Shown: positions 43,208 to 53,053, numbered from the stretch's first letter. The stretch: DNA of 64,000 nt from an uncultured Acetobacteraceae bacterium (GCA_964235615.1 CAXSEE010000001.1:200-64199), one strand, 5' to 3'. The notes: generated from the sequence alone by a model not told the origin. A program made the numbers and translations.

Positions 43208-43747
43208 CTAACCCCCGCCCGGCTCCTTCAGCCGGGCCATGGAGTAGCCATCGACGAGCTTGCCCGCTCTGAGGAGGTGCCCGCGATGCGTGCCCTCGAT
43301 CTCGAAGCCAAACCGCCGGTAGAGGGCGAGGGCTGGAAGATTGTCGGTGTTCACTTCCAGTTCGAGCCGTCGCAGGCCCAGCCAATTATCGGCCAGATCG
43401 ACCAGTGCCGCCATAAGCGCCGTCCCGATCCCACGTCCGACCCAATCATCGTGCACGCCCATGCCGATCCGGCCGACATGGGCTCGACGGCCACTCAACC
43501 GGTCAAGGGCGGCGTTCCCGATAATTTCGCCGTCGAGAACGGCCACCAGACTACGTCCACCAGGAAGGCCCTTTTCCAGACGGCTCCTGACGTCCTCCGG
43601 TGGTTCGAAAGGAATGCGGGTCGTTCCCCAACAAAAGCCGGGCAGGTTTATCAGCATGGTAAGAGCGTCGGCGTCTTGCGCGCGAACCGCACGCAGGACC
43701 AGGCCAGGGGGCGGCCGTCTTGTCGTCTCCGATAGATCGTCAACCAT
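43208..43747 (-). CDS. GNAT N-acetyltransferase (YhhY/AaaT-like)
   Basis: IGMGVHDDWVGRGIGTALM, LELEVNTDNLPALALYRRFGF.IEG. Confidence 0.88.
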   Translation of the reverse strand: MVDDLSETTRRPPPGLVLRAVRAQDADALTMLINLPGFCWGTTRIPFEPPEDVRSRLEKGLPGGRSLVAVLDGEIIGNAALDRLSGRRAHVGRIGMGVHDDWVGRGIGTALMAALVDLADNWLGLRRLELEVNTDNLPALALYRRFGFEIEGTHRGHLLRAGKLVDGYSMARLKEPGGG

Positions 43748-43827
43748 TGGGTCTCCTTCCGGGATCTGGTGGGGAAGGGGAAATCTTCCCGGTATATAGT
43801 GACCTCTTAACGACGGCAGATTGCGCC

Positions 43828-44301
43828 ATGGAAGAGCGTTCCTACACCCACCTGCGAAAAGACTTGCGAGACAGGATCGTCACGCCGGTTTGGCCCAGCG
43901 GCGTCCGACCCGCGCCATTTGTTGCCGATCGATATTTGAAGCCAGCGCACGACCTCCTTGCCGAAGCATATGAACATGGAGGTGGTCATGTCAGGTCATT
44001 GAACGACTGGTGGTCTGCCTTGAGCGCGGACCCGGAATATGATCCAGCGGTCTTCTTCCTGGCTCTGGATGGCATGGATCACGTGATCGGACTGGCACAA
44101 TGCTGGACAGGAAGCTTTCTCAAGGATCTGGTTGTGTCTAAAGCATGGCGGCGCATGGGAGTCGGCGAGGCTCTCCTGCTTCACGCCTTTGCCGTCTTCA
44201 GGCGGCGCGGTTCGACGCATTTCGATCTGAAGGTCGAAGATGAAAACCCGTCAGGAGCTGAACGCCTCTACCACCGGATGGGAATGACGCCGGTCGGATA
44301 A
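43828..44301 (+). CDS. GNAT N-acetyltransferase
   Basis: DLVVSKAWRRMGVGEALL, LKVEDENPSGAERLYHRMG; start chosen at ATG 43828, uncertain. Confidence 0.8.
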   Translation: MEERSYTHLRKDLRDRIVTPVWPSGVRPAPFVADRYLKPAHDLLAEAYEHGGGHVRSLNDWWSALSADPEYDPAVFFLALDGMDHVIGLAQCWTGSFLKDLVVSKAWRRMGVGEALLLHAFAVFRRRGSTHFDLKVEDENPSGAERLYHRMGMTPVG

Positions 44302-44664
44302 TCCATATCCGCTGCCCGTTCACAGCACGCGCCTGACGGTGCGACTGAGCCGGAGCAGCCTCGTCTGCGTCCAGGTCAAAGCCAGTCAGCCGGTCTACCC
44401 AGCGGTAGCTCCGCCTCACATGACCGATGAACAGGCCGGCGAGTGCAACGTTGTTGTTGGATCGAACCCGAACCGATTCCCGGAGTGGGATCAATCGGCC
44501 TTCGCAGGTCTCCCGTTGGTGCGACCCGGCGGCAGCTCGGTCCTCCGCCTTGACATCCTGGGCCTGGACACCGCCCTGTCTTGCCGCATCGTTCCATGCC
44601 GGCTCCGGTAACCGCCTATGGTACTGGAGCGTTAGATTGCCCGACAGGGAAGGTTCCAGGGTTC

Positions 44665-45861
44665 ATGCGGCATATCCATCTCGATCCGCTGGGCGGCACC
44701 GCCGGCGACATGTTCGTCGCCGCCATGCTCGACGGCTTCCCGGAACATCAAGACGATGTGATCCGCGCGGTGCAGGGGCTCGCCGGGGTTGCCTGCCGGC
44801 TGGTGGCCCATGATGACGGCACGCTTACGGGCCGGCGCTTCGAGGTGGATGAACCGGTCCATGATCACGCGCATCATCATCACCATGATCACACGCACTG
44901 GAGCGAGATTCGCGGCCGTCTCGAGGTCGCCGACCTGCCGCCGCTGGTCAGGCAGCATGCGATCGGCATCTTCACCGGCTTGGCCGAGGCGGAAGCGCGG
45001 GTGCATGGCGTGTCGCCGGACGAGGTGGTGTTCCACGAGGTCGGCGCCGCGGACTCCATTGCCGATATCGTCGCCGCGGCCTGGATGATCGCCGCGATCG
45101 GCCCGGCGAGCTGGAGCATCGCACCTCTGCCGATCGGTTCCGGCCGCGTCCACACCGCACATGGCTGGATGCCGGTTCCGGCGCCGGCCACGGCTATCTT
45201 GCTGGAGGGGTTCGCGACCCATGACGACGGTGTGCCGGGCGAGCGGGTGACGCCGACCGGAGCCGCGATCCTGCGTCATCTCGGCGGCACCACTGGCCGC
45301 CGCCCGGCTGGCATACTGCGCCGGTCCGGCTTCGGTTTCGGCACGCGCAAGCTGCCCGGGCTCAGCAATTGCCTGCGCGTGCTGGTGTTCGACGCCGAAC
45401 AGGCCGAGGCTAAGGCCGCCGGGCATCGGGAGCTGGCGGTGGTCAGCTTCGAGATCGACGACCAGTCGGGCGAGGAACTGGCAGCCGGGCTCGCGCGTGT
45501 GCGCGGCATCGATGGCGTGCATGACGTCGTCCAGATGGCGGCGTTCGGCAAGAAAGGGAGATTTGCGGTGCATGTGCAGGTCCTGGCTCGTCCCGATACG
45601 CTCGAAGCCGTGATCGCGGCCTGCTTCAGCGAGACCACGACGATCGGCCTGCGTACGCATATCGTGCAGGGACGGGCATTGACGCGGCGTTTCGCCGACG
45701 TGCCGGTGGAGGGTCGCGAGGTGCGGGTGAAACTGGTCGAGCGTCCCGATGGCGTGACTGGCAAGGTGGAGGCGGATCACGTGCAAGGTCTCGCCGGGCA
45801 TGCGGCGCGAACCCGTCTGCGACGCGATGCCGAACGCCGCGCGGAGGACGGCCTGGAATGA
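44665..45861 (+). CDS. larC: Nickel-pincer cofactor nickel insertase
   Basis: HLDPLGGTAGDMF, His-rich HDHAHHHHHDHTH, FHEVGAADSIADI, TPTGAAIL, IDDQSGE, ETTTIGLR. Confidence 0.92.
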   Translation: MRHIHLDPLGGTAGDMFVAAMLDGFPEHQDDVIRAVQGLAGVACRLVAHDDGTLTGRRFEVDEPVHDHAHHHHHDHTHWSEIRGRLEVADLPPLVRQHAIGIFTGLAEAEARVHGVSPDEVVFHEVGAADSIADIVAAAWMIAAIGPASWSIAPLPIGSGRVHTAHGWMPVPAPATAILLEGFATHDDGVPGERVTPTGAAILRHLGGTTGRRPAGILRRSGFGFGTRKLPGLSNCLRVLVFDAEQAEAKAAGHRELAVVSFEIDDQSGEELAAGLARVRGIDGVHDVVQMAAFGKKGRFAVHVQVLARPDTLEAVIAACFSETTTIGLRTHIVQGRALTRRFADVPVEGREVRVKLVERPDGVTGKVEADHVQGLAGHAARTRLRRDAERRAEDGLE

Positions 45862-46679
45862 GCATGACCCCCCTGGAGCGGCTCCACGCTGAATTATCCA
45901 GCCTGGACCAGGCAGCGATCGCCGTCAGCGGCGGCATCGACAGCCTGACCCTGGCCACGGCGGCGCACCGGCTGCTCGGCGCGCGTGTAAGTATGCATCA
46001 CGCGACGTCGCCGGCGGTGCCGGGCGAGGCGACCGCGCGCACGCGAGCCCTGGCAGCGCGTGAAGGCTGGTCGCTGGACGTGTTCGACGCCGGCGAGTTC
46101 GACGATCCCGATTATCGCGCGAACCCGGTCAACCGCTGCTTCTTCTGCAAGACCAACCTGTATGGAGCCGTGGCAGGGCGGACCGCGCGGACCATTCTGT
46201 CCGGCACCAATCTCGATGATCTCGGCGAGTATCGTCCCGGGCTTGACGCGGCGCGGCGATATGCGGTCCGGCATCCCTTCGTGCAGGCGCAGATCGACAA
46301 GCGGACGGTGCGCGCCCTGGCATTGCAGCTCGGGATGGGCCAACTCGGGCTGGGGGACCTGTCGGAGCTGCCATCGGCGCCCTGTCTTTCGAGCCGCATC
46401 GAGACCGGCATCCGGATCGAGCCGCGCGTGCTCTCGATGGTGCATGAAGTGGAGAAGCACGTGATCCTGACGCTGGCCCCACGCACCGTGCGTTGCCGCG
46501 TGCGCGCCGGCGGCATGGTCATCGAGCTGGACCAGGCTGCCTTGGACGCCCTGGATGCCGGGCGGACTGCACAGCTCGGCACCGAGCTGGCGGCGTTCGG
46601 ACGCGCGGCCGGCCTGGATGGGCCGGTCGGTTTCGCGCCCTATCGCAACGGCAGTGCCTTCGTGCGCAGGCTCGCATGA
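45858..46679 (+). CDS. larE: Nickel-pincer cofactor ATP-dependent sulfur transferase
   Basis: PP-loop SGGIDS, NRCFFCK, GTNLDDLGEYRPG, PSAPCLSSRI; ATGA-coupled. Confidence 0.92.
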   Translation: MSMTPLERLHAELSSLDQAAIAVSGGIDSLTLATAAHRLLGARVSMHHATSPAVPGEATARTRALAAREGWSLDVFDAGEFDDPDYRANPVNRCFFCKTNLYGAVAGRTARTILSGTNLDDLGEYRPGLDAARRYAVRHPFVQAQIDKRTVRALALQLGMGQLGLGDLSELPSAPCLSSRIETGIRIEPRVLSMVHEVEKHVILTLAPRTVRCRVRAGGMVIELDQAALDALDAGRTAQLGTELAAFGRAAGLDGPVGFAPYRNGSAFVRRLA

Positions 46680-47326
46680 GCGATTTCACCCTCGATGAGG
46701 AGCGGACCGGCCGTATCGGCTTCGGCGAGGCGGTGTTCTGCGCCGGCAAGTCGGTGGCGCAGATCGCGTCGATCCTGTCCGCGGCCAAGGCACCGATGCT
46801 GCTGACACGGCTGGAGCCGGAGCGATTTGCCGAATTGCCTGCGACGCAGCGGGATCTTCTCGATTACGATCCGCTCTCCCGCACCGCGTTCTCCGGGGCG
46901 CCGGCCGCACTCGCCGGGCCGGCGCGGATCGCGATCGTCACCGCCGGGACCTCGGACCTGCCGGTGGCGCGGGAAGCCGCCAGGACGCTCGCCTTCAACG
47001 GCCATGACGCGACGCTGATCGCCGATGTCGGCGTGGCCGGCTTGTGGCGGCTGATGCGCCGACTGGAGACATTGCGCAGCGTGCCGGTGCTGATCGTCGC
47101 GGCTGGTATGGATGCCGCACTGCCGAGCGTGATCGGTGGCCTGGTCGCCGGCGTGATCATCGCAGTCCCCACCTCGGTGGGATACGGCGTCGCCGCCGGT
47201 GGTCACACCGCCCTGAACGCCATCCTGGCGAGCTGTGCGCCGGGTATTGTAACCGTCAACATCGATAACGGCTATGGCGCAGCCTGTGCCGCCATGCGCG
47301 TGTTGGGAATGGGATCCGGGGCCTAG
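46676..47326 (+). CDS. larB: Nickel-pincer cofactor carboxylase/hydrolase (PurE-like)
   Basis: R.GFGEAVFCAGK, AGTSDLPVA, DVGVAGLWRL, AGMDAALPSV, PTSVGYG, NIDNGYGAA; ATG 46676. Confidence 0.93.
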   Translation: MSDFTLDEERTGRIGFGEAVFCAGKSVAQIASILSAAKAPMLLTRLEPERFAELPATQRDLLDYDPLSRTAFSGAPAALAGPARIAIVTAGTSDLPVAREAARTLAFNGHDATLIADVGVAGLWRLMRRLETLRSVPVLIVAAGMDAALPSVIGGLVAGVIIAVPTSVGYGVAAGGHTALNAILASCAPGIVTVNIDNGYGAACAAMRVLGMGSGA

Positions 47327-47350
47327 GCTCCACCGATAGGAGAGTTCACC

Positions 47351-48403
47351 ATGGAAAGACGCAGCTTCATCAAGGCTACAGCCCTGGGAGTGGCGGCAGC
47401 CGCCGCAGCCAAGGTCGCGCATGCCCAGGTCGAGACCAGCCAGGGAGGGGTGGTGCGCGCCACCGGGCCGGTGACCTCGCGGATTGCCGAACATCCGGAC
47501 ATGAAATACCGCCCGCTTGGCCGCACCGGCGAGCGCGTGTCGCTGGTCGGCATGGGGGGATACCACCTGGCCAAGCCGGGAGGTGCGACCAACGCCGAGG
47601 CGACCCGGCTCGTGCATGCGGGGATCGAGGCGGGCATCAACTTCTGCGACAATTGCTGGGACTATAACGGCGGCGAGAGCGAGGTTCGGCTCGGCCGCGC
47701 ACTGACGCAAGGCTGGCGCAACCGCGTCTTTCTCATGACCAAGATCGACGGCCGCACCGCCAAGGCAGCGATGAGCCAGATCGAGCAGTCTCTCACCCGG
47801 CTGCAGACCGACCATGTCGACCTGTTGCAGTTCCACGAGATCATCCGCATGGACGATCCCGAGCGGGTATTCGCCCAGGGTGGCGCGCTGGAAGCCGTGC
47901 TCAAGGCACGCGAGCAGGGCAAGCTGCGCTACATCGGCTTCACCGGGCACAAGAGCCCGGCGATTCACAAGCATATGTTCGACGTGGCCGACCAGCATGA
48001 TTTCCACTTCGACACCGTGCAGATGCCGCTGAACGTCATGGATGCGCATTTCGACAGCTTCGAGCAGGGCGTGCTGCCGGTCGCCCTGGCGCATGGCACG
48101 GCGGTGATGGGCATGAAGGCGTTCGGCGACCCGTTCATCCTCGACACCAAGGCGGTGTCGCCGATCGAGATGCTGCACTATCCGATGAGCCTGCCGATCG
48201 CGTTGCAGATCACCGGCATCGACAAGATGGAGATCCTGCATCAGGCGTTGGAGGCCGTGCGTACCTTCAAGCCGTTCACCCCCGAGCAGCGCGCGTCGAT
48301 CCTCGATCGCACGGCCGAACTGGCGAAGGACGGACATACCGAGAAGTACAAGATTTCGCATCAGTTCGACGGAACGGTGCATAACCCGCAATGGCTGGGC
48401 TAG
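47351..48403 (+). CDS. Tat-exported aldo-keto reductase-fold protein, candidate nickel-pincer-dependent enzyme
   Basis: MERRSFIK...AHA signal; DNCWDY, FLMTK, DLLQFHE, GFTGHK, MPLN, MKAFG; RBS AGGAGAG, 24 bp after larB. Confidence 0.85.
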   Translation: MERRSFIKATALGVAAAAAAKVAHAQVETSQGGVVRATGPVTSRIAEHPDMKYRPLGRTGERVSLVGMGGYHLAKPGGATNAEATRLVHAGIEAGINFCDNCWDYNGGESEVRLGRALTQGWRNRVFLMTKIDGRTAKAAMSQIEQSLTRLQTDHVDLLQFHEIIRMDDPERVFAQGGALEAVLKAREQGKLRYIGFTGHKSPAIHKHMFDVADQHDFHFDTVQMPLNVMDAHFDSFEQGVLPVALAHGTAVMGMKAFGDPFILDTKAVSPIEMLHYPMSLPIALQITGIDKMEILHQALEAVRTFKPFTPEQRASILDRTAELAKDGHTEKYKISHQFDGTVHNPQWLG

Positions 48404-49425
48404 CCGGGTCAGGCCTCGGCCTGCGCATCTCGCTTCTGTGCGGTGGATTGATCGCAGCCAACGTTGCAGTCTGGGTCTGGGTGCTCGTTGCCTTTCACGC
48501 CTATCCGCTGCTGCTCGGAACGGCACTTCTGGCCTACGGGCTGGGACTGCGTCACGCGGTGGATGCCGATCATATAGCGGCCATCGACAACGTCATGCGG
48601 ACGCTGATGCAGTCCGGGCAGCGCCCTGTCGGCGTGGGACTGTTCTTTTCCCTTGGCCATTCGACCATCGTCGTGGCGGCTTCCATCGCCATCGCGGCTA
48701 CGGCCATGGCGTTCCGGTCACGCCTGGAAGTGTGGCACGACATCGGCGGGGTTGTCGGCACGCTGGTCTCGTCGGTGTTTCTCCTGGCCATCGCGGCGAT
48801 GAACATCGTCATCCTGCTGTCCGTGCGACGCAGCTTTCGCAGGCTGCGCCGGGGCGAGCCGGTCGAGGCAGGCGAGCTCGATCTGCTGCTGGCCGGCGGC
48901 GGACTGCTGTCGCGCATCTTCCGCCCGCTGTTCGGCAGGATTGCCCGAAGCTGGCAGATGTATCCGCTCGGCGTGCTGTTCGGGCTCGGTTTCGACACGG
49001 CGACCGAGGTCGGCCTGCTCGGCATCTCCGCGGCAGAAGCCTCGCACGGTCTGCCGATCTGGTCGATCCTGGCCTTTCCGGCCCTGTTCACCGTCGGCAT
49101 GTCGCTCGTCGACAGCATCGACAGCGTGCTCATGCTGGGCGTGTATGGCTGGGCCTTCGTCAAGCCGGTGCGAAAGCTCTACTACAATATGGTGATCACG
49201 CTGGTTTCCATCGTGGTCGCCGTGCTGATCGGCGGCATCGAGGCGCTCGGGTTGCTCGGGCAGCAATTCGCCTTGCACGGCCTGTTCTGGGACATGGTCG
49301 CCGCGCTGAACGACAACTTCGGCCTGATCGGCTACTGCGTCATCGCCGTCTTCGTTCTCGCCTGGGTGGGGGCTGCGATACTCTATCGCGCACGCGGCTA
49401 TGACCGGATCGAAGTGCAGATCTAG
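48391..49425 (+). CDS. High-affinity nickel/cobalt permease (NiCoT, HoxN/NixA family)
   Basis: GLRHAVDADHIAAID, FFSLGHST, GLGFDTATEV; multiple TM segments; overlaps the AKR end by 13 nt. Confidence 0.93.
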   Translation: MAGLAGSGLGLRISLLCGGLIAANVAVWVWVLVAFHAYPLLLGTALLAYGLGLRHAVDADHIAAIDNVMRTLMQSGQRPVGVGLFFSLGHSTIVVAASIAIAATAMAFRSRLEVWHDIGGVVGTLVSSVFLLAIAAMNIVILLSVRRSFRRLRRGEPVEAGELDLLLAGGGLLSRIFRPLFGRIARSWQMYPLGVLFGLGFDTATEVGLLGISAAEASHGLPIWSILAFPALFTVGMSLVDSIDSVLMLGVYGWAFVKPVRKLYYNMVITLVSIVVAVLIGGIEALGLLGQQFALHGLFWDMVAALNDNFGLIGYCVIAVFVLAWVGAAILYRARGYDRIEVQI

Positions 49426-50726
49426 GCTGGATCAGCCAGGGCCTGGTCGAGATCGGCCAGTATGTCGTCGATATGCTCGATGCCGATCGACAGCCGCACA
49501 TAGCCCGCAGAGACCCCGGTCGAGAGCTGCTCGTCCACGCTGAGCTGGGAATGCGTCGTGCTGGCGGGATGGATCGCCAGCGAACGCGCATCGCCGATAT
49601 TGGCGACATGGTAGAATAGCCGCAGCCGGTCGATGAAGGCGCGGCCTGCTTGCGCACCGCCCTTGAGCTCGAAGCCGAGCAGGCCCCCGCGTCCGCGCGT
49701 CAGATAGGTCTCGCTGCGCTGGCGCGCGATGCCGGCCGGATGATGCGACGGATGGATCACCCGCTGCACCTCGGGATGCCTGGCCAGGAAATTCGCCACC
49801 GCTTCGGCATTCTCGCTGTGGGCGCGCATGCGCAGCGGCAGCGTCTCGATCCCCTGCAGCAGCAAAAAGGCGTTGAATGGCGACAGGGCCGAGCCGAGGT
49901 CGCGCAGCAACGTGGTGCGGGCCTTGAGGATATAGGCGATCGGGCCCAGCGGTGCTGCGGCCTCGGTCCAGATCGCGCCGTGGTAGGAGGGTTCGGGCGT
50001 ATTCAGCGCCGGCTGGCGGTCCGGATACGCGGCCCAGTCGAAATTGCCGCCGTCGATGATCAGGCCGCCGATCGAGTTGCCGTGGCCGCCGAGATACTTG
50101 GTTGCCGAATAGACCACGATGGCGGCGCCATGGTCGAACGGGCGCACCAGCAGCGGGGCGGCGGTGTTGTCGACGATCAGCGGGATGCCCAGCGGCCGTC
50201 CGAGTGCGGCCACCTCGGCGATCGGGAAGCAGCGCAGTTTCGGGTTCGGCAGGGTCTCGGCATACCAGGCGCGGGTGCGCTCGTCGCTGGCGCGCGCGAA
50301 GGCCTCGGGATCCTCGGGATCGACGAAGTGGGTCTCGATGCCCTGGTCGCGCAAGGTGTTGGCGAACAGGTTCCAGGTGCCGCCATAGAGATCGGTCGAG
50401 GAGACGATGTTGTCGCCGGCGCGGGCCAGGTTCTGCACGCTGATCGCCGAGGCCGCCTGACCCGAAGCGAACGCCAGCCCCGCCACGCCGCCCTCCAGCG
50501 CCGCCACCCGCTTCTCCAGCACATCCGTCGTCGGGTTCATGATGCGCGTATAGATGTTGCCCAGCTTCTGCAGGCTGAACAGAGCCGCCGCCTGCTCGGT
50601 GCTCTCGAACTGATACGAGGTGGTCTGGTAGATCGGCACCGCCACGGCGCCGGTGGCCGGGTCCGCACGCCAGCCGGCATGCAGCGCCAATGTCTCGGAT
50701 TTGGGATTGCTGGAGGGCTCGGTCAT
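49422..50726 (-). CDS. metY: O-acetylhomoserine sulfhydrylase / aminocarboxypropyltransferase
   Basis: ETLALHAG, VPIYQTTSY, GNIYTRIMNPT, SATKYLGGHG, HVANIGDARSLAIHPASTTHSQL; ATG 50726. Confidence 0.92.
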   Translation of the reverse strand: MTEPSSNPKSETLALHAGWRADPATGAVAVPIYQTTSYQFESTEQAAALFSLQKLGNIYTRIMNPTTDVLEKRVAALEGGVAGLAFASGQAASAISVQNLARAGDNIVSSTDLYGGTWNLFANTLRDQGIETHFVDPEDPEAFARASDERTRAWYAETLPNPKLRCFPIAEVAALGRPLGIPLIVDNTAAPLLVRPFDHGAAIVVYSATKYLGGHGNSIGGLIIDGGNFDWAAYPDRQPALNTPEPSYHGAIWTEAAAPLGPIAYILKARTTLLRDLGSALSPFNAFLLLQGIETLPLRMRAHSENAEAVANFLARHPEVQRVIHPSHHPAGIARQRSETYLTRGRGGLLGFELKGGAQAGRAFIDRLRLFYHVANIGDARSLAIHPASTTHSQLSVDEQLSTGVSAGYVRLSIGIEHIDDILADLDQALADPA

Positions 50727-51020: not shown

Positions 51021-51752
51021 ATGTCGCATACCCGTAACGTCGTTCGCCTGACCTTTACCCTGCCGTTCCTGCTTGCCCTGGGCGCTTGCGTCACCCCGCC
51101 GCCGAGCGGGCCGAGCTTCACCGCCCTGCCTGCGGATGGCAAGACCTTCGATCGCTTCTCGGCCGAGGATAATTACTGCCGCCAGGCAGCGCTGAGCCGT
51201 AGCGGCTATTCGGGCAGCAGCGGCGCCAACTCTACCTTGGGCGGCGCTGGCGTTGGAACCCTGGTCGGAGCCGCCGGCGGAGCACTGCTTGGAGCAGCTG
51301 CGGGAAATCCTGGTATCGGTGCGGCGGCAGGAGCAGGGACCGGCCTGCTGTTCGGGTCGGCGATCGGCTCCAACAACGGCTCCTTCGATGAAGCGACCGT
51401 GCAGCATAACTACGATAGCACCTATGCCCAGTGCATAGCCTCATACGGCAACAAGGTGCCTTCCGCCGGACAGATCAGCTCCTATCCTGTCTCCTCCGGT
51501 TATGGCGGCTACGGCGGATATGGCGGTTACGGCGGCTATGGCGGCTACGGCTTCGGTTATGGCGGTTACTACCCGGGCTACGCGTTTGGCTACGGTTATC
51601 CGTTCTTCGGGCCCGGTTTCGGCTACGGCTTCGGCTTCGGTGGTTTCTATGGCCGTGGCTATGGCTATGGTCGTGGTTATGGCGGCGGCTACGGCGGCGG
51701 CTTCCATGGCGGCGGCTTCCATGGTGGTGGTGGAGGTGGTGGCCGCCGCTAG
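51021..51752 (+). CDS. Lipoprotein with glycine-zipper domain and Gly/Tyr/Phe-rich low-complexity tail
   Basis: Lipobox LGAC; GAGVGTLVGAAGGALLGAAAG zipper; (GYG)n and GGGFHGGGFH tail. Confidence 0.8.
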   Translation: MSHTRNVVRLTFTLPFLLALGACVTPPPSGPSFTALPADGKTFDRFSAEDNYCRQAALSRSGYSGSSGANSTLGGAGVGTLVGAAGGALLGAAAGNPGIGAAAGAGTGLLFGSAIGSNNGSFDEATVQHNYDSTYAQCIASYGNKVPSAGQISSYPVSSGYGGYGGYGGYGGYGGYGFGYGGYYPGYAFGYGYPFFGPGFGYGFGFGGFYGRGYGYGRGYGGGYGGGFHGGGFHGGGGGGGRR

Positions 51753-53053
51753 GCTCGGGACGCCGCGACCTCCGGATCCAGCATACGAAGGGCGAGGCTG
51801 AAGAAATCCTCGCCACCGAAATTGCCTGACTTCAGGGCGAGCGTTACACCGGGATGATGCCCCCCCAGTGTGTGCAGCACTGGCACTCCTGGTGCGATCG
51901 CCTCGCCGATCAGGAACGCTTCCAGGCCCAGGCGGTCGACCACGGCGCCGGAGGTCTCCCCGCCGGCGATGACCAGCCGGCTGACGCCGGCCGCGACCAG
52001 CGCCTCCGCGAGATCGGCAAATGCCTGCTCGATCGCATGACCGACGACGCCCGCACCGTGACGCTTCTGCAGCGCCCGCACCGTGTCCGGCGTGCCGCTG
52101 CTGGCGATCAGGACCGGTCCGGAGGACAGCCTCTCCCGCGCCCAGGCCAGTGCCGCCCCAACTTCATTGCCGTCGTCCAGCAGCTTCTCGACATCGAGCC
52201 GGAGGCACGGCATCTCCCGCTCCGCGACCGCGATCTGCCGCAACGTCATGGCCGAGCAACTGCCGGCCAGGATCGCCGCCCTGCCTCCTTGCGGCGGGGC
52301 CGGCCGCTCGACCGCGCTGGATGCGGCACGTGCGGCGCTTCGCGAAACCAGGGCGCGCGCCAGGCTCGAGCCGAGGCCGGACGCTCCGGTGGACAAAGGC
52401 ATGTCGAGTGCGGCTTCACCGATCGCGTCGAGATGGCGCGCGGCCACGGAGTCCGCGATCGCGGAACCCGCCCCCTTCGCGGCGGCCTCGGCGAGCGCCG
52501 CGCGCACGGCTTCAGCGCCGCGCTCGACCACGGCGAACGGCACCAGCGCCACCGGATGCGCGCTCTGCCGTCCCAGCACGCGGACCAGGCTGGAGTCGCG
52601 CATCGGGTTGAGCGGGTGGTCCTTCATCGGGCTCTCGTCGAGCGGCATGTCGCCGACGAACAGACGGCCCTGGAACACGGTCCGGTTGTTCTCGGGAAAT
52701 GACGGATTGACCAGCACGATGCCGCCGCCGGCACGCGCGCGCAGCGCGTCCAGCACCGGGCCGATATTGCCCGCATCGGTCGAGTCGAAGGTCGAGCAGA
52801 TCTTGAACAGGATGTGGGTGGCGCCGCGCGCGCGCAGCCATTGCTCGGCTTCCAGCGACAGCGTCACCGCCTGCGTGGCCGGGATCGAGCGGCTTTTCAG
52901 CGAGACGACGACGGCATCCGCCGCCGGGAGATCGAGGCTGTCCCGCGGCACGCCGATGGTCTGCACGGTGCGCAGGCCGTTCAGCGACAGCATGCTCGCG
53001 AGGTCCGACGCCCCGGTGTAATCATCGGCGATGCAGCCCAGCACGATCTTCAT
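51749..53053 (-). CDS. otnK: 3-oxo-tetronate kinase (four-carbon acid sugar kinase)
   Basis: LGCIADDYTGASD, KSRS, KICSTFDST..GNIGP, GGETSG, LKSGNFG. Confidence 0.92.
   Translation of the reverse strand: MKIVLGCIADDYTGASDLASMLSLNGLRTVQTIGVPRDSLDLPAADAVVVSLKSRSIPATQAVTLSLEAEQWLRARGATHILFKICSTFDSTDAGNIGPVLDALRARAGGGIVLVNPSFPENNRTVFQGRLFVGDMPLDESPMKDHPLNPMRDSSLVRVLGRQSAHPVALVPFAVVERGAEAVRAALAEAAAKGAGSAIADSVAARHLDAIGEAALDMPLSTGASGLGSSLARALVSRSAARAASSAVERPAPPQGGRAAILAGSCSAMTLRQIAVAEREMPCLRLDVEKLLDDGNEVGAALAWARERLSSGPVLIASSGTPDTVRALQKRHGAGVVGHAIEQAFADLAEALVAAGVSRLVIAGGETSGAVVDRLGLEAFLIGEAIAPGVPVLHTLGGHHPGVTLALKSGNFGGEDFFSLALRMLDPEVAASRA

Follow-up and report, generated by a model that had tools for sequence, protein, structure and literature searches.

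Predicted nickel-pincer cofactor operon coupled to a putatively Tat-exported NphT-type aldo-keto reductase in an uncultured Acetobacteraceae bacterium

Genes of the operon

The current study concerns a five-gene operon at positions 44665-49425 of a 64,000 nt stretch of DNA, hereafter the window, from an uncultured Acetobacteraceae bacterium (GCA_964235615.1, CAXSEE010000001.1:200-64199). Three genes for the synthesis of a nickel-pincer cofactor, larC, larE and larB, are followed by a gene for an aldo-keto reductase (AKR) and by a gene for a nickel permease, each present once and in that order on the + strand. The first gene, larC (44665..45861, +), matches PF01969 with 317.6 bits, TIGR00299 with 183 bits and NF052512 with 95 bits, and its product is a nickel-inserting, CTP-dependent cyclometallase in which the LarC1 and LarC2 domains are fused and which bears the His-rich stretch HDHAHHHHHDH. 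The product of larE (45858..46679, +; TIGR00268 226.9 bits, cut-off 150) is an ATP-dependent sulfur transferase with the PP-loop SGGIDS, a CxxC pair and a third Cys, while larB (46676..47326, +; NF033503 246.5 bits, cut-off 175) encodes a nicotinic acid adenine dinucleotide (NaAD) carboxylase/hydrolase.

The fourth gene (47351..48403, +) encodes the AKR, presumed to be the client of the cofactor; its only Pfam match is PF00248 (93.9 bits). The last gene (48391..49425, +) encodes a NiCoT permease of the HoxN/NixA type (PF03824 332 bits; TIGR00802 397.7 bits, cut-off 333.05), which passes the cut-off of the HoxN/HupN/NixA subfamily and falls below that of the NicT equivalog (338 bits against 450). 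The larC/larE and larE/larB junctions each consist of a 4-nt ATGA overlap, a 24-bp gap separates larB from the AKR gene and holds a Shine-Dalgarno sequence, AGGAGA (47338..47343, +), read off the sequence 7 nt before the AKR start codon, and the AKR and NiCoT genes overlap by 13 nt, whereby the latter is translationally coupled to the former. Open reading frame (ORF) and profile matches thereby confirmed, in every boundary, overlap and gap, the arrangement of five coupled genes described in the original prediction, which had been made from the sequence of the window. An Rfam scan of positions 43500-50000 at E <= 1 returned no riboswitch and no other RNA family, and a promoter and terminator scan of the operon returned signals at background level only.

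Relationship of the aldo-keto reductase to NphT

In a sequence search of the Protein Data Bank (PDB), the best solved relative of the window AKR was entry 9YEB (E 9.4e-28; next match 1.3e-16), which scores 3.1e-31 with a profile of the clade to which the AKR belongs. This entry represents NphT of Alicyclobacillus cellulosilyticus, the characterised member of the AKRs that depend on the nickel-pincer mononucleotide cofactor (NPMN), as described by Semersky et al. (Nat Chem, June 2026; PMC13524815; PDB 9YEB); the report of AKR-fold, pincer-dependent hydride transferases that the original prediction had mentioned is accordingly real. The family was discovered by looking for AKR genes that adjoin larB, larC and larE with no larA nearby, and 427 lar-co-occurring AKRs and 798 AKRs with a His/Lys pair were counted (PMC13524815). 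NphT binds NPMN covalently via K200 and coordinates the nickel by H144, with further cofactor contacts from T142, W218/Y219 and G248; it still has the AKR tetrad D47/Y52/K75/H106 and makes no use of NAD(P)(H), its cofactor cavity being shortened such that the AMP half of NAD(P)H is excluded (PMC13524815). Ribose, arabinose and galactose are dismutated to lactone and alditol through intermolecular hydride transfer without NAD(P)H, and these activities are slow (kcat/KM 1-10 M-1 s-1) and termed promiscuous by the authors, who give the physiological substrate as unknown (PMC13524815). Both the enzyme family and the route of its discovery are already published, and the operon described here is a textbook case of that pipeline.

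Because the alignments of the 9YEB search end before K200, the full-length NphT sequence was retrieved via its N-terminal half (P0121, whose numbering is that of the paper +2); a PDB search with the C-terminal half of the AKR alone did not recover 9YEB. Alignment of the AKR clade profile with the NphT clade profile by hhalign yielded a probability of 99.9 and an E value of 6.5e-35 across 257 columns, and placed GFTGH200 of the window AKR on GITGH144 of NphT, and AVMGMK256AF on GLMTIK200AI. The resulting correspondences, from the AKR to NphT, are D100-D47, Y105-Y52, K131-K75, H162-H106, T198-T142, H200-H144 and K256-K200, and all seven AKR residues are invariant in 81/81 sequences (the window AKR and 80 relatives) when these are aligned with NphT by MAFFT. 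The equivalence of H200 and H144 was obtained with phmmer, hhalign and MAFFT alike, M255-K256 aligns with I199-K200, and the spacing from His to Lys is 56 residues in both proteins; in the window, the codons of the putative nickel-ligand His and tethering Lys lie at 47948-47950 and 48116-48118 (+), respectively. A further invariant residue, G289, lies near NphT G248 but is aligned with S246 by MAFFT.

The AlphaFold2 model of the AKR (predicted local distance difference test 90.2, predicted TM-score 0.88) is an (alpha/beta)8 barrel of eight strand-helix units, in which H200 directly follows the predicted strand 192-198 and K256 directly follows strand 251-255. A Foldseek search with this model, against a PDB copy older than 9YEB, matched canonical AKRs exclusively (TM 0.60-0.67). 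In the same genome, eight canonical AKRs likewise keep the tetrad, but carry GxSN and WSPLA at the positions of the His and the Lys; in this comparison the combination of TGH and [MI]K was confined to three clade members and NphT. The PF00248 profile covers positions 2 to approximately 200 of 291 in the window AKR, in its paralogues in the genome and in NphT, compared with 1-290 in a canonical AKR, and this early end of the match is an indirect hint that the cofactor cavity of the AKR may be shortened as it is in NphT. None of the NCBIfam AKR equivalogs came near its cut-off with the window AKR (best 43 bits against 550), and the protein matched neither PF09861 (Lar_N) nor PF21113 (LarA_C). 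Judged by sequence, the AKR would appear to belong to the NphT family, and a normal NAD(P)H-dependent AKR, the outcome against which the original prediction had been set, is disfavoured by the same tests, as the His/Lys pair is present and the canonical GxSN/WSPLA elements are missing.

Co-occurrence with lar genes and presumed cofactor clients of the genome

To be a client of the cofactor, as the original prediction had it, is a role that also finds support in comparative data. Among 201 Acetobacteraceae genomes, in which the AKR clade was called at E <= 1e-80, LarC is present in 38, the AKR clade in 26 and LarA in 20. All 26 AKR-positive genomes are also LarC-positive, and the clade is found in 0/163 of the LarC-negative ones (Fisher p = 8e-24 over the 201 genomes, not corrected for phylogeny); the AKR gene lies within 3.5 kb of larC in 23/26. 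LarC and the AKR occur without LarA in 16 genomes, several of which are single-contig assemblies, and together with LarA in 10, while a further 8 genomes hold LarC and LarA without the AKR. Where both clients are present the lar genes adjoin the AKR gene and LarA is encoded elsewhere, whereas in AKR-less genomes such as G169, G179, G180 and G187 they adjoin larA. The remaining 4 LarC-positive genomes (G104, G139, G225 and G243) have neither LarA nor the AKR clade; two of these are small (2.0-2.5 Mb) and 100% complete, and the four may hold another kind of nickel-pincer client.

The clade extends well beyond this family: it comprises 470 clusters at 50% identity (E <= 1e-30), and at least 595 loci came out of a scan across species genomes, 80 of which were fetched for neighbourhood work. 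The order larC-larE-larB-AKR recurs in 16/19 of the fetched Acetobacteraceae loci and, since adjacency to larC is seen in 23/26 AKR-positive genomes as well, the arrangement is not attributable to chance. Approximately 17/61 of the more distant loci (52-62% identity), from Acidobacteriaceae, Eremiobacterota, Nostoc, Verrucomicrobiota and Binatia, have lar genes within 10 kb, and LarC is still encoded in 45/48 genomes that lack adjacent lar genes, the three exceptions being small metagenome-assembled genomes, two of which have the AKR at a contig edge. In the genomes surveyed the clade is mostly accompanied by LarC; a clade found mostly without larBCE would have spoken against the original prediction. 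A NiCoT gene lies 3' of the AKR gene in 5/80 of the related loci.

The assembly from which the window derives (4.65 Mb, 410 contigs, 93% complete) holds a single copy each of larC, larB, larE and the NiCoT gene, all within the operon; its only other match to the larB model is purE-like (23.5 bits). The window, as had been noted, and the rest of its contig are free of LarA, and the sole Lar_N match of the assembly lies on contig C35, where the genome's only LarA homologue is encoded (C35:7332-8678; Lar_N 180 bits plus LarA_C). A genome search for larA, which the original prediction had advised, therefore does find a homologue; that it might account for the operon is a proposal we rejected, given the 16 genomes that combine larBCE and the AKR without LarA. 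The homologue, whose ORF is partly masked (X), contains the pattern PH...GGRK...TFH, which we take to comprise the LarA catalytic His, tethering Lys and nickel-ligand His. It lies in a stretch (C35:7332-11526) where it is divergent from a canonical AKR gene, an Amidohydro_2 (lactonase-like) gene and a 2-keto-3-deoxy-6-phosphogluconate aldolase gene, a neighbourhood that suggests a sugar-acid racemase or epimerase.

Two AKR paralogues, each with the His/Lys pair and 54% identity to the window AKR, are also encoded. The first (C28:17-1153, +) bears the twin-arginine motif MDRRTLFRR and overlaps by 11 nt a downstream gene of the dienelactone hydrolase family, the product of which has a signal-peptide-like N-terminus (C28:1143-2216, +; PF01738 51.8 bits); were this lactone hydrolase periplasmic, its position next to an NphT-like enzyme would suit the conversion of aldoses to lactones. 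The second (C12:23848-24882) lacks a signal, and stands, in a region with no nearby lar genes (C12:23086-26922, -), between a zinc-dependent alcohol dehydrogenase and a short-chain dehydrogenase/reductase (SDR) gene, under an AraC-type regulator, and may represent an NPMN-dependent AKR that acts in the cytoplasm as part of a polyol or sugar cluster. When the neighbours of both paralogues were sought in the 80 related loci, the dienelactone hydrolase was absent and the alcohol dehydrogenase, SDR and AraC genes were sporadic. Neither the LarA homologue nor the two paralogues come with their own lar genes; together with the window AKR they probably draw on the one larBCE set, which would then have four enzymes to supply, and the self-contained system envisaged in the original prediction was not borne out.

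Elsewhere in the window, the operon is flanked by genes for two GNAT acetyltransferases, a DUF892 protein and a convergent Cys/Met pyridoxal phosphate enzyme, which look unrelated to it. An ORF at 51021-51752 (+) encodes a lipoprotein-like product with a Gly-zipper domain, the C-terminal half of which consists almost entirely of GYGG / GFGYG repeats, and a four-carbon acid-sugar kinase-type gene (51749-53053, -; SBD_N plus NBD_C) lies 2.3 kb 3' of the operon, beyond the convergent Cys/Met enzyme. Within the operon itself, the cysteines of LarE (45858-46679) are a CFFC pair and a third residue in SAPCLSSR; three cysteines presumably mark the [4Fe-4S]-dependent catalytic type, as opposed to the single-Cys sacrificial LarE of Lactiplantibacillus plantarum, and the NCBIfam label 'sacrificial' may be inapplicable here.

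Predicted export, alternative readings and comparison with known systems

Residues 1-25 of the AKR (47351..47425, +) are predicted to form a twin-arginine translocation (Tat) signal peptide, scoring above the TIGR01409 cut-off (20.1 against 16.7 bits). The Tat consensus is S/T-R-R-x-F-L-K, and the N-terminus of the AKR, MERRSFIKATALGVAAAAAAKVAHA followed by Q, comprises ERRSFIK, then ATALGVAAAAAA as an Ala-rich h-region, and then AHA, after which cleavage is predicted. The pattern RRxF[LI]K occurs in the majority of the 80 relatives, which span several phyla, and the sequences that it misses mostly have, on visual inspection, a variant RR motif; the motif was seen in Acetobacteraceae, Acidobacteriota, Eremiobacterota, Nostoc and Verrucomicrobiota. 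Among the best 150 of 470 representatives at 50% identity, it is present in 36/54 full-length proteins with an M start, many of the others being truncated gene calls, and the His/Lys pair is present in 88/108 that cover both motif positions. The linker that follows the motif varies freely in length and sequence across the 80 relatives, and maintenance of the motif across phyla while the remainder of the N-terminal region varies is not what would be expected of a relic. TatC, located by tblastn and verified against Pfam (PF00902 236.5 bits), is encoded in the genome and is preceded by a TatB-like ORF, and LarB, LarC and LarE have no signal peptides.

The Tat pathway carries folded, cofactor-loaded proteins, and the signal and TatC together would imply that the cofactor is loaded in the cytoplasm and put to work in the periplasm. 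Export of the AKR by this route seems probable from its sequence. The periplasmic nickel redox system proposed in the original prediction would accordingly stand in part: the periplasmic location would hold for the AKR, while synthesis and loading of the cofactor would be cytoplasmic.

The following mechanism may be proposed. Ni2+ would enter the cytoplasm through the NiCoT permease, and LarB, LarE and LarC would convert NaAD into NPMN, a chemistry that is established for these families. The AKR precursor would fold in the cytoplasm and take up NPMN in the manner of NphT, with K256 providing the thioamide tether and H200 the nickel ligand; its Tat signal would then route the folded holoenzyme via TatABC into the periplasm and be cleaved off there after AHA. 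There, the tethered cofactor and the retained tetrad, in which Y105 is a likely acid/base, could pass hydride back and forth between alcohols and carbonyl compounds, and aldoses, lactones and alditols are candidate substrates for a redox-neutral dismutation or transhydrogenation such as NphT performs in vitro. A covalent tether would make sense in a compartment that has no NAD(P)H and in which the enzyme could not be reloaded. The same larBCE genes would probably also supply the LarA homologue and the two paralogues encoded elsewhere in the genome.

We assign a probability of about 0.78 to the reading that this operon imports nickel, makes NPMN and loads an exported AKR for periplasmic hydride shuttling. 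Its parts differ in strength. That the AKR is a client of the cofactor is very likely. The odds are about even that its chemistry, by analogy with NphT, is redox-neutral and directed at sugars, lactones and polyols; the hints at this chemistry are weak and consist of the NphT reaction in vitro, the gene of the lactone hydrolase family that overlaps the C28 paralogue and a dehydrogenase gene upstream in three Acidobacteriaceae loci (see below). For the clade as a whole, the balance tips slightly towards a nicotinamide-free periplasmic hydride-transfer system, in which a nickel-pincer cofactor, made and covalently fixed in the cytoplasm and exported within the folded enzyme, takes the place of NAD(P)H as a tethered carrier in the redox-neutral interconversion of sugars, lactones, polyols or aldehydes.

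Several observations weigh against this interpretation. Cofactor binding, nickel content, export and activity of the AKR are all inferred. Most of the distant clade members among the 80 fetched loci do not adjoin lar genes, and clustering of the neighbours across these loci shows that only lar genes recur and that none of the neighbours points to a substrate. The LarA homologue on C35 also requires the cofactor, from which it follows that the operon is not dedicated to the AKR alone. In the hhalign comparison, the loop that bears W218/Y219 in NphT is shorter by approximately 16 residues in the AKR clade and the pair is not conserved, while the last 30 or so residues of the AKR form a conserved, clade-specific tail (…DGHTEKYKISHQFDGTVHNPQWLG) that is absent from NphT; the pocket of the AKR may consequently differ from that of NphT, and the enzyme could bind the dinucleotide form, NPAD, instead of NPMN. 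Finally, NPMN synthesis, loading and crystallisation of NphT were performed in an anaerobic chamber (PMC13524815), and the periplasm in which the AKR would operate is oxic and probably acidic, conditions that the cofactor might not withstand.

The alternative that survives best, an unlikely one, holds that the AKR does use NPMN but is a true dehydrogenase or reductase that exchanges reducing equivalents with an acceptor in the periplasm, for instance a cytochrome, O2 or a quinone-linked partner. The slow and promiscuous sugar activities of NphT leave room for dismutation not being the physiological reaction (PMC13524815). A signal-bearing glucose/sorbosone dehydrogenase of the pyrroloquinoline quinone (PQQ) type is, moreover, encoded 30-95 bp 5' of the Tat-signal-bearing AKR, on the same strand, in three Acidobacteriaceae loci (L027:8614-9945, L029:8640-9968 and L068:8613-9905; PF07995, 63 bits in L027), and within 3 kb of the AKR in two more. 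Neighbour clustering nevertheless found such dehydrogenases in just 5 of the 80 loci and SDRs in 13, too few to name a substrate, and revealed no recurrent cytochrome, ferredoxin or membrane partner. The AKR, with its single Pfam match, has no Fe-S, haem or flavin domain, and we know of no report of one-electron chemistry for NPMN, which also counts against an electron-transferring enzyme. An Fe-S-wired variant of the AKR was considered and rejected, as no such domain or partner is present at the operon.

Marginally less probable still is that an NPMN-dependent AKR remains in the cytoplasm, like NphT, its RR region being non-functional or otherwise used. The Pfam TAT_signal model yields no score on the AKR at E <= 0.001, the C12 paralogue has no signal and, to our knowledge, no organometallic Ni-C cofactor has yet been demonstrated to be exported, a point in favour of a cytoplasmic enzyme. 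On the other side are the canonical layout of the signal, its TIGR01409 score, the persistence of the motif across phyla amid an otherwise freely varying N-terminal region, and the presence of TatC, all of which argue for the exported enzyme. It is very improbable that the AKR is an ordinary NAD(P)H enzyme that merely sits in an operon maintained, with its NiCoT gene, for the LarA homologue: although that homologue has no lar genes of its own and the genome holds a single larBCE set, the 16 genomes without LarA, the siting of lar genes beside the AKR where both clients coexist and beside larA in the AKR-less genomes, the absence of the clade from LarC-negative genomes and a His/Lys pair that is invariant in the clade and missing from all eight canonical AKRs speak against it, and a Tat-exported enzyme would meet no NAD(P)H in the periplasm.

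An exported, NPMN-loaded AKR would be of interest on several counts. Nickel-pincer AKRs were first reported in June 2026, and the one member that has been characterised is cytoplasmic. The text of that paper uses none of the terms periplasm, twin-arginine, Tat, signal peptide, secreted or transporter (PMC13524815), and within the literature searched no other paper ties Tat export to an NPMN-dependent AKR. What appears to be new relative to the paper and the searchable literature is the Tat export predicted for a large, multi-phylum subgroup, the coupling to NiCoT, and the apparent service of one larBCE set to three AKRs and a LarA homologue, that is, to unrelated client folds within one genome. 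If the proposed mechanism is true, it would provide the first instance of an organometallic Ni-C cofactor being exported, and it would offer a biological reason for an AKR to trade NAD(P)H for nickel: it suggests as a rationale that, with its hydride carrier covalently tethered, an AKR can work in the periplasm, a compartment that lacks nicotinamide cofactors. This rationale, drawn from a subgroup that is large, phylogenetically broad and mostly equipped with the Tat motif, is a testable one. The findings also bear on annotation, proteins of this clade being named at present 'diketogulonate reductase-like' or 'aldo/keto reductase', and would raise estimates of nickel-dependent metabolism in acidic soils, peat and lichens.

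Among known systems, NphT (9YEB) is the closest to the window AKR, with which it shares the AKR TIM barrel, the nickel-ligand His, the tethering Lys, the equivalent of T142 and the full tetrad, as well as a gene position beside larB, larC and larE without a nearby larA and a C-terminal third that diverges from the canonical AKR profile. The two nonetheless differ substantially: the N-terminal 179 residues are 37% identical, with approximately 30% identity in multiple alignment, the C-terminal half being unalignable by pairwise search; the AKR has a predicted Tat signal and a linker of approximately 25 residues that NphT lacks, a W218/Y219 loop some 16 residues shorter and an additional conserved tail of approximately 30 residues; the residue after the His is an invariant K201 in the AKR clade and Gly in NphT; and the AKR is translationally coupled to NiCoT. 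The AKR is, furthermore, from Gram-negative, acid-soil/lichen-type lineages, while NphT is from thermophilic Firmicutes.

With the LarA family, a homologue of which coexists in the genome, the AKR would share a cofactor from the LarB/LarE/LarC pathway, a Lys tether and a His nickel ligand. The folds are unrelated, LarA enzymes are cytoplasmic, and in LarA the hydride goes back to the substrate molecule from which it was taken, whereas NphT moves it between molecules. Canonical AKRs (AKR14A1/YghZ, AKR11C1 and L-galactose dehydrogenase) have the same fold and D/Y/K/H tetrad, but they carry GxSN and WSPLA in place of TGH and MK, match the whole Pfam profile, and are cytoplasmic enzymes with a diffusible cofactor. 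As a functional analogy only, the AKR resembles the PQQ- and FAD-dependent sugar and alcohol dehydrogenases of acetic acid bacteria, which likewise perform carbonyl/alcohol chemistry in the periplasm with a bound, non-nicotinamide cofactor; those enzymes are not homologous to it and feed the respiratory chain, a link of which no sign is visible at the operon.

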